Source: a virus
Taxonomy: Duplodnaviria > Heunggongvirae > Uroviricota > Caudoviricetes
Reading direction: 5' to 3' (one strand)
IMG/VR virus record: IMGVR_UViG_2778261568_000008
Coordinates: 1-33,324 of that record
DNA length: 33,324 bases
Position 1 is the first letter of the stretch, and each line of letters begins with the position of its first letter. Positions 1,207 to 33,324 of this stretch are shown here, piece after piece. The translations under genes and the position numbers were made by a program. Under the pieces are notes generated by a model, which was not told the DNA's origin, did no database searches, and saw nothing but the letters and a program-made list of their open reading frames with translations.

Positions 1207-1264
1207 TACCCAAGGTATTTATTTTTGGTGAAATAATGATAACCAAATGAATACAAAGGATATT
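1180..1264. promoter_or_regulatory. OL operators: AATAC-N5-GTATT sites at 1180-1194 and 1205-1219, degenerate third site at 1250-1264
   Basis: Same 15-bp inverted-repeat motif as the three OR sites; two sites are 25 bp centre to centre. Confidence 0.6.
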
Positions 1265-1350
1265 TATTTTTTCGGTGTCTGCTTGTTCAGTGTTTTTTAT
1301 GCGGGATATGTGAAGTGGATCCCGATAGCTATTGCTGTCGGGATTATGGG

Positions 1351-1719
1351 TTAGTCAGCGAAGGTTAAGACGAGAATTACCTTAATGATGTCTGCTACAA
1401 CAGACACGGCCATAGATAAACCAAAGACGATCCAAGCCATAGAGATGTCTTCACTACCATCGTATAGAGTTCCGTAATCACTGGTGTAAGGCGTAAATGT
1501 CGCGCCTTGATACAACAGGTATAAGCTTGAACCATAGAGGATAAATGCAGATATCCCTTGTATTGCTATGATCACTAGAATCATGAAACGAGCTGATCTA
1601 TGCGCCCAAGCCTGGCTTATTTTTTCTGATAGAGATTTCGCAATAAAAGCATGCGCTAAGCCGTAAATTGTCGAGATTGCCAACATCCCAAAAAAGCTTG
1701 CTATAGCGGTTCCAACCAT
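1351..1719 (-). CDS. Small multi-pass membrane protein (about 122 aa) co-transcribed with the repressor
   Basis: Hydrophobic throughout, roughly four predicted TM segments. ATG at 1719 with AAGGGG upstream lies 18 nt past the cI stop (track TTG start at 1740 overlaps the cI stop). Occupies the rexAB position. Confidence 0.6.
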   Translation of the reverse strand: MVGTAIASFFGMLAISTIYGLAHAFIAKSLSEKISQAWAHRSARFMILVIIAIQGISAFILYGSSLYLLYQGATFTPYTSDYGTLYDGSEDISMAWIVFGLSMAVSVVADIIKVILVLTFAD

Positions 1720-1736
1720 AATCGCCCCTTGCGTGA

Positions 1737-2453
1737 TCAAACCAGCCTTAGTTTTGTCTCAATTGCAACGCCTATAATCTTGCAGTTTCCATTGATTGGC
1801 ACGAGAGGCCATGCAGGATTAAGTCCCTTGAGGTATTTATTTCCGCCGTCGATTATCAGCTTCTTGAATGTTGCTTCGTTAGAGTCAGAAAGTTTTGCTA
1901 TGACCAAGCTGCCGTTGATCGCCTCCCTTCCGGTATCGAAAAGAACGAATGTTCCCTCTGGAATGCTTAACCCAACCGGTGCCGTCATTGAATCACCTTC
2001 CACTTTAAGCCAGAACGCATTACCTTGAATATGCGCGTCAGACTCAAGCCAAACATCTATGTCTTTAATGGTGTATGGTTCGCATGCTTCACACCACGAG
2101 CCAGCCTGGATACTGCTTAACACCGGATACCTCTTTCCTGCTCTGTATTCCCCTGCATACCTTACGTTGGCATCGCTCTTAAGGCTTTCTGCCTGTTCTG
2201 CAACCTTGGCAGCAATTGACTGGCTAAAATCAGCAATTGATACTTGCAACAATCGTGCAAAACCAGATGCAACCTCAACGTTTAGCGCGTTTCTGCCATT
2301 AAGATAATGCCCTACCGCTCCTTGGGTGATACCCAGTTCATCAGCGATTGAGTATTGGGTTATTCCCAATTCTTTCTTTTTTGACTCATACAAAGCCTTA
2401 AGCCGCTTAGCGTCTTCTAGCTGTTCTGTCGTCAGTGATTTTTTATTTTCCAT
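1737..2453 (-). CDS. cI: CI-type prophage repressor (N-terminal HTH, C-terminal S24 LexA-like peptidase domain)
   Basis: C-terminal domain with GDSM serine motif and conserved Lys, closely resembling P22 C2; the N-terminal HTH is different. No SD before the ATG at 2453, consistent with a leaderless PRM transcript. Confidence 0.95.
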   Translation of the reverse strand: MENKKSLTTEQLEDAKRLKALYESKKKELGITQYSIADELGITQGAVGHYLNGRNALNVEVASGFARLLQVSIADFSQSIAAKVAEQAESLKSDANVRYAGEYRAGKRYPVLSSIQAGSWCEACEPYTIKDIDVWLESDAHIQGNAFWLKVEGDSMTAPVGLSIPEGTFVLFDTGREAINGSLVIAKLSDSNEATFKKLIIDGGNKYLKGLNPAWPLVPINGNCKIIGVAIETKLRLV

Positions 2454-3141: not shown

Positions 3142-3175
3142 TGTAGAAAGACTGGATCAATCCACGGGAGTCATT

Positions 3176-3322
3176 ATGACAAAACAACTCAGTCCTTACC
3201 AGGACAAAATTCACAAACACATACTACGTGATCGCTTCCTGTCCAGCTTCAAGCAGCCTGGTCGATTCCGGGCTGAGTTGGAAAAAGTGAAGCTGATGCA
3301 GAAGGAGAAAGGTCATGAGTAA
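3176..3322 (+). CDS. Small hypothetical protein (48 aa)
   Basis: GGGAG 5 nt before the ATG; stop overlaps the O start. Not in the ORF track (under 60 aa). Confidence 0.3.
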
Positions 3323-27785: not shown

Positions 27786-28115
27786 CTATTTAATTCTCTT
27801 TTCAATGGCTGCAATTATTGCTTTTCCTGATGTTTCAGGAGATTTTGTAGCCATATAAGACGAAAAAATCATGTCGGTCATTCTTTCATAACTTACTATT
27901 TCCCACTTAGCCAATGCATGGGACAGTTTGTAGTTGTCATCAGTTAGTGCCCTTATGGAATTTTTTAAGTGTTTATTCTCTTCTGTTAATCGCGCAATTT
28001 TTGTATCAATTTCATGTGAGCGATCTAATTCCTTAACCTGTTTCTTGAGGGCAGCTAACCCTGCATATAGTACGCAACAGGATATCCCAAGAGCGAGTAC
28101 TACTATTTCTAACAC
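27786..28115 (-). CDS. Membrane-anchored coiled-coil protein (109 aa)
   Basis: N-terminal TM segment, then heptad-rich sequence; AAGGAGG RBS; AT-rich; at the P22 sieA position. Confidence 0.6.
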   Translation of the reverse strand: MLEIVVLALGISCCVLYAGLAALKKQVKELDRSHEIDTKIARLTEENKHLKNSIRALTDDNYKLSHALAKWEIVSYERMTDMIFSSYMATKSPETSGKAIIAAIEKRIK

Positions 28116-28233
28116 ACCAACCTCCTTAGTTTTTCGCAGGATACCATGAAAAAAGTAAACATCTTTTGCCTACTTCACATTTGAATGGTTTGTCATTAGG
28201 ATGTTTCCGGTTTTTTCAAATATGGAAATTGAT

Positions 28234-28653
28234 ATGAAGAGGATTATCGGCGTTGTTGCTGGCGCTATATTGTTATCTGGGTGCGCAACTATTGTTGGTG
28301 ACGAAACACAGCTCGTGCAAGTGAACAGCAATCCTTCCGGTGCGAGCTTTAAAGTAAAAGACGAATCAGGCGTGATTGTTGCGCAAGGCAAGACCCCGCA
28401 AGGAGTAAGTCTTGCCAAGTCAGATGGTAGTTATTTTGGCAAAAAGAGCTACCAGATCACTATGGAAAAGGATGGGTACGAACCAGTTACCCTGCCAATC
28501 AAAGCCAATGCTAATGGTTGGTATATTGGTGGAAACCTTGTGTTTGGTGGGTTAATTGGTTGGCTTGCTGTAGATCCTTTTAATGGTGGGATGTATACCT
28601 TGAAGCCAAAAGAGGCAAACGCATCTCTTATACCATCAACAAAGCAAGACTAA
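28234..28653 (+). CDS. Lipoprotein (about 139 aa, lipobox LSGC)
   Basis: Signal peptide MKRIIGVVAGAILLSGC; start may instead be the ATG at 28222 or 28201. Confidence 0.75.
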   Translation: MKRIIGVVAGAILLSGCATIVGDETQLVQVNSNPSGASFKVKDESGVIVAQGKTPQGVSLAKSDGSYFGKKSYQITMEKDGYEPVTLPIKANANGWYIGGNLVFGGLIGWLAVDPFNGGMYTLKPKEANASLIPSTKQD

Positions 28654-32115: not shown

Positions 32116-32147
32116 AAAAAAGGCGGGATTTCCCGCCTTATTTTATT
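32116..32147. terminator. Bidirectional terminator between the small ORFs and the convergent glycosyltransferase gene
   Basis: GGCGGGA-TT-TCCCGCC hairpin flanked by A-rich and T-rich runs on both sides. Confidence 0.6.
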
Positions 32148-33324
32148 GGAAGTATGACTCTGTTTTCTTTCTGTTGAGTTTTGAACCAGTGCCTTTATAT
32201 CCGGCAGTAACATGAAATTCCCACTCGTTACGCTGCAATGCATCTTTGGTTAATCCGTAGAATCTCACTAAATATCCGCAGTCCAGATTGTAATCTGGGA
32301 ACTTCGCTACAACATCTGAGCGCTGAATTTTTTCCTCCAGAAAACCGGGCAGGATCTCCTGTCCTATGCGTAAGTTAAAGAACTGCTGCTCAACGCCCTC
32401 AGTGGGCACGCACCATCCTGTGAAAATGCATGACCCGTCATCTTCTCTCACCCTGTCTACGTAACCATGCCACGTTATTCTACTTTCATCGCGCTCAACC
32501 GTTAATGCTTGCTCCAGATTCAGCCCCATACCCTTCAGGTATTCATAAACTCCATCCATAATAAAGAACTTAGACGGGTTGATAGATTTCGAAGCTGCAT
32601 GCATATCGTAATATTCAGTCTGAGTCATCAGGAACTTTTTGACTAAATGATGTCTCGCCCCTTTGAATGCCTTCAGAGCCTCAATATCATTGACGTCAAC
32701 AAGACCCTCCAGTTTATTCCTGGCGCTGGCGATATAGTCATCATAGTTCTTATGGTGGAAGTGAAGATAAATGATATCCGTATCAACTTGCTGGCCTGAC
32801 TCAACCTCACCGCGATGGAAGCCATTACCCAGCGCAGTGATTCTTGATTTAGGGAAGAACACTTTCTCAGGCTTAGGGCTTAACGCAAATTCTTTTGGGT
32901 TAAGTGGATGGTTGCCATATGTATATTTAATTTTAAATGTGGCGTCGGTATCTATATATTTTGATAATTCATTCAACACATCATTTTTAGACAGCGACAC
33001 CTTACCCTTTGAAAATTCAACGCCGACAAACTCATCACAATCAAGTGGCATCATAAAATCATAGCCATGAGAATTCTTTAATTCTTCGTATTTGTCTACG
33101 AAGTAGATATGTCTGGTATTGAAATCATCAAAGGTGCTTCTGTCATAAACGACATTCATCCCTTTTCCCGAATATTCCTTCAGAATGTTAAGGCATCGCT
33201 CATCTGCTGACCCGTTATCGTAGACGTATAAATTTTCAAGGCCAAAAAGCTCAGCATGATGCAGTATCCATGGCTCAAGAAGCCGGTACTCATCCTTTTG
33301 CATCATCAAAACAGCAACTTTCAT
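32143..33324 (-). CDS. Family-2 (GT-A fold) glycosyltransferase, 393 aa
   Basis: VYDNGSAD and DCDEF (DxD) motifs; no obvious TM segments; the start codon is the last three bases of the window, so the promoter lies outside. Confidence 0.85.
   Translation of the reverse strand: MKVAVLMMQKDEYRLLEPWILHHAELFGLENLYVYDNGSADERCLNILKEYSGKGMNVVYDRSTFDDFNTRHIYFVDKYEELKNSHGYDFMMPLDCDEFVGVEFSKGKVSLSKNDVLNELSKYIDTDATFKIKYTYGNHPLNPKEFALSPKPEKVFFPKSRITALGNGFHRGEVESGQQVDTDIIYLHFHHKNYDDYIASARNKLEGLVDVNDIEALKAFKGARHHLVKKFLMTQTEYYDMHAASKSINPSKFFIMDGVYEYLKGMGLNLEQALTVERDESRITWHGYVDRVREDDGSCIFTGWCVPTEGVEQQFFNLRIGQEILPGFLEEKIQRSDVVAKFPDYNLDCGYLVRFYGLTKDALQRNEWEFHVTAGYKGTGSKLNRKKTESYFQ

Follow-up and report, generated by a model that had tools for sequence, protein, structure and literature searches.

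What does a temperate phage, or the lysogen that carries it, gain from a small gene placed directly behind the repressor? The question is raised by a 33,324-nt stretch of tailed-phage DNA (IMG/VR virus record IMGVR_UViG_2778261568_000008; this full stretch is referred to as the window, and all positions of the locus are given in its coordinates), in which a single open reading frame (ORF), hkaS, lies between the cI repressor gene and the left operator. Genes co-transcribed with the repressor are made in every lysogenic cell, and few prophage promoters are as active during lysogeny as that of the repressor (Owen et al., PMC8585504). The window is a phage or prophage of the P22-like (Lederbergvirus) kind whose immunity type is that of HK620, and its region 1000-2800 is 99% identical to the immunity regions of HK620, mEpX2, HK630, HK140, and HF4s, as well as to those of two vB_EcoP Shiga toxin (Stx)-type phages and two Stx2c phages.

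Identity of the gene downstream of cI

The hkaS coding sequence (1351-1719, minus strand) runs from an ATG start to a TAA stop at 1351-1353 and encodes 122 amino acids; its assignment draws on the ORF list and the sequence, the identity with HK620, the match to PHROG 6534, the codon-level selection, and the AlphaFold2 model described below. An earlier account made from the letters of this DNA alone (hereafter the sequence-only reading) had treated the gene as nameless, when it is already hkaS of coliphage HK620 (AAK28867), with the product "unknown" and 97.5% identity over 120 of 122 residues. The HK620 and window proteins are the same gene in the same position between cI and OL, with no substantive difference between them. 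The ORF also matches PHROG 6534, a family of unknown function, from residue 1 to residue 122 of a 122-position profile (E = 2.9e-79), and in public records the protein is always called "hypothetical" or "uncharacterized". Literature searches for hkaS, the HK620 immunity region, and mEpX2/HK630/HK140 yielded no functional study. The ORF has been annotated since 2001, and an anti-phage role for cargo of the PRM operon is an established idea; what is new here is the evolutionary evidence that hkaS has a function, its strict coupling to one cI clade, a corrected topology, and its status as an orphan in both sequence and fold.

Selection on hkaS and co-inheritance with the repressor

Six divergent lineages, 50-83% identical, were compared, and all of them keep exactly 122 codons with zero indels. 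Rates of substitution were compared between the window and the Hafnia-like lineage, deeper pairs being saturated at synonymous sites. In this pair, synonymous divergence (dS) is equal for the two genes (0.72 for hkaS and 0.71 for cI), which therefore share one evolutionary history, and the ratio of non-synonymous to synonymous divergence (dN/dS) is about 0.13 for hkaS versus 0.03 for cI. The gene is under purifying selection, as judged from these codon comparisons, and conservation of this kind marks it as a genuine protein-coding gene, in agreement with the sequence-only reading, which had taken the ORF after cI to be real. At the population level, all of the 80 sampled IMG/VR copies are intact. 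They comprise 19 protein alleles for HkaS versus 6 for cI, with 16 synonymous-only and 16 non-synonymous polymorphic codons in hkaS versus 29 and 5 in cI. The substitutions that distinguish HkaS alleles are mostly conservative (I/V/L/M, S/T). The sole disrupted copy seen is that of HF4s, in which the loss of 1 nt from an A6 run cuts the protein short after residue 33. This run occupies 1620-1625, hkaS codons 32-34, and the deletion could be either a sequencing error or a slippage-prone off-switch.

The family forms 12 clusters at 90% identity in a word-indexed search of 5.8 billion proteins and a single 50%-identity cluster in an exhaustive profile search of 1.84 billion representatives; neither search returned any remote relative beyond it. 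The 90%-identity cluster that holds the window protein contains 525 distinct sequences, and the exact window allele occurs on at least 1000 contigs. The hosts are all Enterobacterales (Escherichia, Salmonella, Enterobacter, Hafnia, and Buttiauxella), and carriers include Shiga toxin-producing and avian pathogenic Escherichia coli strains as well as some Stx-converting phages. Among the loci examined (E. coli, Salmonella, Hafnia-like, Buttiauxella, and metagenome), hkaS always lies directly downstream of an HK620-type cI and upstream of OL/PL. It occurs only with one cI clade, whose members are at least 84% identical, and no other repressor partner was seen. This cI is carried by 146 of 5426 complete E. 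coli genomes (about 2.7%), and the hkaS region is present in all 146, as is hkaS in 16 of 16 phage records with this cI. Other loci lose their homology to the window at about 950-1100 (between nutL and N) and at about 3150-3300 (after cII); both breakpoints lie outside hkaS, which is therefore an internal part of an exchangeable immunity module. Taken together, the comparisons indicate that hkaS has been inherited as a unit with its cI clade for longer than synonymous sites take to saturate.

The repressor operon

The first cistron, cI (1737-2453, minus strand), encodes a 238-aa repressor with HTH_3 and Peptidase_S24 domains (Pfam), is annotated as such in HK620, and matches the mEpX2 repressor with 100% identity. 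Between its TGA stop and the hkaS ATG at 1719 lie 17 nt; within this spacer a Shine-Dalgarno sequence, AAGGGG (1725-1730, minus strand), can be read 5 nt upstream of the ATG. A spacer of 17-20 nt with a Shine-Dalgarno sequence is kept in every lineage, a purine-rich equivalent standing at the matching place in all divergent loci. An alternative TTG start at 1740, which overlaps the cI stop codon (TTGA) and would extend the ORF to 129 aa (1351-1740, minus strand), was rejected. It is not conserved, and the extension is impossible in the Salmonella lineage because an in-frame TAA immediately precedes the ATG. The ATG and its Shine-Dalgarno sequence are conserved in all lineages, and comparison across them identifies this ATG as the real start. 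Of what the sequence-only reading had said about the junction, the length of about 122 aa and the start close behind the cI stop (by 17 nt in the present reading) stand, and the TTG alternative falls; its proposal of translational coupling is retained in part, as close spacing of two ORFs that do not overlap, the second of which has an independent Shine-Dalgarno sequence.

A promoter and terminator scan of the junction found no promoter-like or terminator-like site between cI and hkaS. Seven nucleotides past the hkaS stop lies a stem-loop, ATCCCGA...TCGGGAT (1319-1344, minus strand; RNA fold z = -2.9), which is a candidate 3' end or terminator and in the window allele has no U-run. Every lineage has a hairpin or terminator at this place 3' of hkaS, with a sequence that differs each time; in the Buttiauxella locus it is a canonical intrinsic terminator (AACCCGGA...TCCGGGTTTTTT) followed by a T-run. 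The authors of the HK620 sequence annotated tIMM ("termination of cI transcript") downstream of hkaS as well. This annotated element (1239-1269) folds weakly; as the end of the transcript, the hairpin at 1319-1344 is the more plausible of the two.

The pair is bounded on the left by the PL promoter with OL1 (1179-1195) and OL2 (1204-1220), together spanning 1171-1220 on the minus strand (HK620 annotation transfer, promoter scan, and operator palindromes), and on the right by OR3-OR2-OR1 with PRM/PR at 2464-2529 (HK620 annotation and operator sequences). The operator palindrome, with the consensus AATAC-N5-GTATT, thus flanks cI-hkaS on both sides. Within this OL...OR bracket, PL and PR both transcribe away from hkaS, and the only promoters upstream of it are those of cI. 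The slot between cI and OL/PL is that of rexA-rexB on the lambda map, as the sequence-only reading had proposed. Given the lack of an internal promoter or terminator, the conserved junction, and the hairpin after hkaS, the architecture indicates that the repressor operon of the HK620-type immunity module (PRM/PRE, cI, hkaS, hairpin) has two cistrons and ends with hkaS. Co-expression with cI from PRM, which had likewise been anticipated, is well supported by this architecture, and HkaS would then be made continuously in lysogens and inserted into the inner membrane.

Some smaller features of this region deserve mention. The OL3 annotated in HK620 (equivalent to 1226-1242, TGGTGAAATAATGATAA) fits the operator consensus poorly; GAATACAAAGGATATTT at 1249-1265 fits it well and overlaps the annotated tIMM. 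A 35-aa hydrophobic ORF at 1247-1354 (plus strand), convergent with hkaS and annotated as a protein in HF4s, was rejected as not conserved. Its ATG lies in the operator region, and conservation is lowest here within the module, at 27-52% identity to divergent loci, all of which lack a counterpart; the ORF is probably spurious. Scanning 800-2900 against Rfam gave no match. A small RNA, svsR, described at the 3' end of a lambdoid cI (PMC12803456), was considered for a link with this module, but a shared immunity type could not be established for the NC-SV prophage.

Predicted structure and topology of HkaS

Kyte-Doolittle hydropathy gives HkaS three hydrophobic stretches, at about residues 2-27, 45-72, and 93-121. 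The AlphaFold2 model (predicted local distance difference test, pLDDT, 89.6; predicted template modelling score, pTM, 0.76) places helix 1 at residues 2-29, a short helix at 31-38, helix 2 at 41-73, a beta-hairpin at about 78-86, and helix 3 at 89-121. Both methods thus replace the four segments of the sequence-only reading with three. Loop 1 (residues 28-44, 17 residues) is basic and conserved, with a net charge of +3 to +5 in the six lineages, and loop 2 (residues 73-92, 20 residues) is acidic, with a net charge of -1 to -4. Because loop 1 is positive and loop 2 negative, the positive-inside rule predicts an N-out/C-in topology, with the N-terminus in the periplasm and the C-terminus in the cytoplasm. 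Accordingly modelled, HkaS is predicted to be a three-helix inner-membrane protein without a soluble domain.

Across the lineages, 38 residues are invariant. The first transmembrane helix (TM1) carries a ladder of small residues (G3, (A/G)7, G11), and the predicted cytoplasmic loop carries the conserved motif K33..Q36.W38.H40..A43-R44-F45 (KISQAWxHRxARF). Also invariant are Q54 in TM2, a YLLY sequence at the outer end of TM2, S106, D110, and K113 in TM3, and a C-terminal peptide, ILVLTFAD (I115-x-VLTFAD122); identity over the last eight residues is 96%. Variation is greatest in the periplasmic loop, with a mean identity of 47%. Mean identity is 0.53 in the outer-facing half versus 0.60 in the inner-facing half, which is a trend (permutation p = 0.13).

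Scans of HkaS against Pfam, NCBIfam, and PADLOC gave no significant match, consistent with the earlier statement that the protein has no recognisable motif, and PADLOC-DB v2 returned 0 defence families at E <= 10. Sub-threshold matches to Cation_ATPase_C (Pfam, E = 0.0011) and TssN were rejected as compositional matches between transmembrane helices. Foldseek searches of the PDB and of viral structures gave nothing at E <= 0.001. Direct comparison with individual proteins was equally negative: the hhalign probability is 0.6% for lambda RexB (blastp E >10, and no RexB family in the Pfam scan at E <= 1), 0.3% for P22 SieA type A, 0.1% for P22 SieB, and 0.2% for the holin of the window itself (no holin family in the Pfam scan), and blastp against the Hex homologue of Sf101 found only chance matches of 8-10 residues (E >= 2.5). 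The topology prediction and remote-homology search that the sequence-only reading had suggested have thus been carried out, giving three helices in an N-out/C-in arrangement and no homology to any characterised protein. No homologue of SieA, SieB, RexB, or Hex is encoded in the window, and a RexA-like partner gene is absent, the cI-OL interval holding a single ORF both here and at every homologous locus.

Other occupants of the slot

Outside the HkaS clade, the slot of the closest cI relatives is either empty or filled with unrelated cargo. In Enterobacter phage BHUENT3, whose cI is 65% identical to that of the window, the slot holds an ORF with a CxxC...CxxC pattern and a coiled-coil ORF with a C-terminal anchor; Sf101 (cI 51% identical) has a homologue of 434 hex that overlaps the cI stop; in ST64T (48%) and in P22 the slot is empty; lambda (43%) has rexAB, 933W has stk (PMC3564112), and BTP1 has bstA (PMC8585504). 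The region from cI to N has been described as a hotspot of mosaic diversity (Owen et al., PMC8585504). In BHUENT3, the closest cI outgroup, the slot at 2170-2886 encodes a 127-aa CxxC...CxxC protein, and its second ORF encodes a glycine-rich protein of 109 aa with a coiled coil and a C-terminal transmembrane helix (weak XhlA-like match). The characterised occupants between cI and OL, namely lambda RexAB, 434 Hex, 933W Stk, and BTP1 BstA, all exclude other phages (PMC3564112, PMC8585504), and it is on this ground that an exclusion role is read into HkaS.

Possible functions of HkaS

By analogy with these occupants, we tentatively favour the reading that HkaS acts at the inner membrane to guard the lysogen from other phages, most likely by a block to genome entry, and we regard this as a possible rather than a probable account of the gene. 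The target phages would be heteroimmune or unrelated to the prophage, and the most probable mechanism would be to stop the incoming genome from crossing the inner membrane, as P22 SieA, T4 Imm, and HK97 gp15 do. HkaS might either interfere with phage ejection or tape-measure proteins or occupy a host inner-membrane protein that these proteins use. SieA, an inner-membrane protein that blocks ejection-protein function, is a precedent together with Imm and gp15 (PMC10883804). Like HkaS as predicted here, SieA is a small multi-pass inner-membrane protein expressed from the prophage, and it is sufficient alone to block genome delivery by interfering with ejection proteins (PMC10883804). Unlike HkaS, it has 164 aa and is encoded by a moron in immI/ant, with its own promoter, outside the repressor operon. 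SieA types A-C have a transmembrane-helix architecture in common. An entry block is favoured over abortive infection because HkaS is small, polytopic, and encoded on its own, lacking both a cytoplasmic sensor domain and a partner gene, and because its periplasmic loop is the most variable region and SieA, Imm, and gp15 provide precedents.

Several observations weigh against this proposal. HkaS resembles neither SieA, SieB, RexB, and Hex nor any PADLOC model; the exclusion or abortive-infection role suggested by the sequence-only reading is supported by positional analogy with RexAB, Hex, Stk, and BstA, and homology to known exclusion or defence proteins was looked for and not found. Prophages that carry the module differ widely in their virions (P22-like, lambda-like, and Stx phages), and its function is therefore independent of any one injection machinery. 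Conservation is strongest on the cytoplasmic side, in loop 1 and the invariant C-terminus, and would also fit a cytoplasmic partner; the contrast between the inner and outer halves is itself only the trend given above. Finally, the positional prior consists of four characterised cases, among which Hex also modulates prophage induction. If HkaS does exclude phages, it would be a new single-gene membrane exclusion factor of 122 residues, relevant to the prediction of host range in phage therapy and to the study of genome passage across the inner membrane.

Second to an entry block, though already unlikely in our estimate, is that HkaS acts as a stand-alone abortive-infection effector, which would form oligomers in the inner membrane and depolarise or permeabilise it in response to a phage product, killing the cell before progeny are made, in the manner of RexB or an early holin. 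HkaS does occupy the slot of RexB, which is likewise a small polytopic inner-membrane protein made from the PRM transcript (PMC8585504). RexB differs in having 144 aa and four hydrophobic segments and in requiring the cytoplasmic sensor RexA, whereas HkaS has three helices and no partner gene; neither a RexA-like sensor gene nor a soluble domain that could sense infection is present. The three helices and the N-out/C-in topology (for HkaS predicted from hydropathy, AlphaFold2, and the positive-inside rule) are those of class I holins, the invariant polar or charged residues within helices (Q54, S106, D110, and K113) would suit such a role, and the TM1 ladder G3-x3-(A/G)7-x3-G11 could serve helix packing or a pore. 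Class I holins, however, have a charged hydrophilic C-terminal tail and a dual start and are encoded in a lysis cassette, in contrast to the hydrophobic ILVLTFAD end, the single conserved ATG, and the immunity-region location of HkaS. The hhalign probability is below 1% against both RexB and the holin of the window, and no PADLOC model matches. BstA of BTP1 and Stk of 933W, each a single gene downstream of cI with a presumably shared promoter, both confer abortive infection (PMC8585504, PMC3564112), but BstA is DNA-associated and Stk is a tyrosine kinase, both of them large and cytoplasmic, whereas HkaS is a small membrane protein.

Unlikely as well, and placed after an abortive-infection effector, is a role unrelated to phages, in which hkaS would be a lysogenic-conversion moron that serves host fitness through stress tolerance, ion or small-molecule handling, or envelope homeostasis. 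The expected constitutive expression in lysogens from a highly expressed locus, a distribution that takes in several Enterobacterales genera and about 2.7% of complete E. coli genomes, and the lack of any defence-family signature are consistent with it, as is the weak similarity to the C-terminal helices of cation P-type ATPases (Pfam, sub-threshold, E = 0.0011). That match, however, does not reach the gathering score and is of the compositional kind that is typical between transmembrane helices; moreover, the family was never seen outside a prophage repressor operon, and the characterised cargo of the slot is anti-phage.

About equally unlikely is a Hex-like modulator of the lysis-lysogeny decision, which would stabilise the prophage, for example by altering how fast cI or CII is turned over (through FtsH or RecA) or by coupling induction to the state of the membrane. 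By architecture, 434 Hex resembles HkaS in being the second cistron of a PRM-cI transcript and an accessory gene after a related cI; it overlaps cI, excludes P22, and is also found in Sf101 (PMC3564112). Hex differs in having an unrelated sequence and no membrane-spanning helices besides an N-terminal signal peptide. Deletion of hex raises spontaneous induction about 30-fold (PMC3564112), which provides the precedent. The strict co-divergence of HkaS with one cI clade, whose members share at least 84% identity, and the location of the most conserved parts in the cytoplasmic loop KISQAWxHRxARF and the C-terminal ILVLTFAD could be understood in the same way. Nevertheless, tight linkage, with a 17-nt spacer inside the immunity module, alone accounts for co-inheritance; the HkaS protein evolves about 4 times faster than cI, a frameshifted copy exists in the phage isolate HF4s, and there is no sign of contact between HkaS and cI. 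If HkaS does modulate induction, it would matter for the biology of Stx phages.

Concerning Hex itself, the 158-aa homologue of Sf101 (NC_027398, 2037-2513) has a Sec-type signal peptide (MIRIAALLSILLTTSANS, followed by ECWIV...) with a predicted cut at E43, the residue at which the published active fragment "sHex" starts (PMC3564112). Hex may thus be an exported periplasmic protein, in which case a direct effect on RecA-mediated repressor cleavage, which Hex is reported to inhibit, would be a poor fit.

A broader, non-defence version, which we consider improbable, would make HkaS a membrane-embedded component of the switch that reports the state of the membrane or envelope to cI/CII or tunes repressor turnover, possibly through the invariant cytoplasmic loop and C-terminal peptide. 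Such a role would explain why HkaS has remained associated with one repressor clade in several host genera and past the point of synonymous saturation. Last, that hkaS is a chance ORF or a decaying remnant downstream of cI, as the HF4s copy truncated by a 1-nt deletion in the A6 run might suggest, is extremely improbable and effectively refuted by the lack of indels at 50% identity, the dN/dS of 0.13, the conserved start and Shine-Dalgarno sequence, the 80 of 80 intact IMG/VR copies, and the high-confidence structure prediction.

Other features of the window

Elsewhere in the window, two candidate lysogeny-expressed envelope genes lie between the homologue of the gene-16 ejection protein and mnt/arc/ant. 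One (28201-28653, plus strand) encodes a 150-aa lipoprotein with the lipobox LSGC and a weak match to the PEGA domain. The other (27786-28115, minus strand) encodes a 109-aa protein with an N-terminal transmembrane anchor and a coiled coil; it has the strand and position of P22 sieA, yet is unrelated to SieA. After the tailspike gene, an ORF on the minus strand (32143-33324) runs off the right end of the window and contains a family-2 glycosyltransferase domain (E = 1e-8); it may be a lysogenic-conversion gene that modifies the O-antigen.

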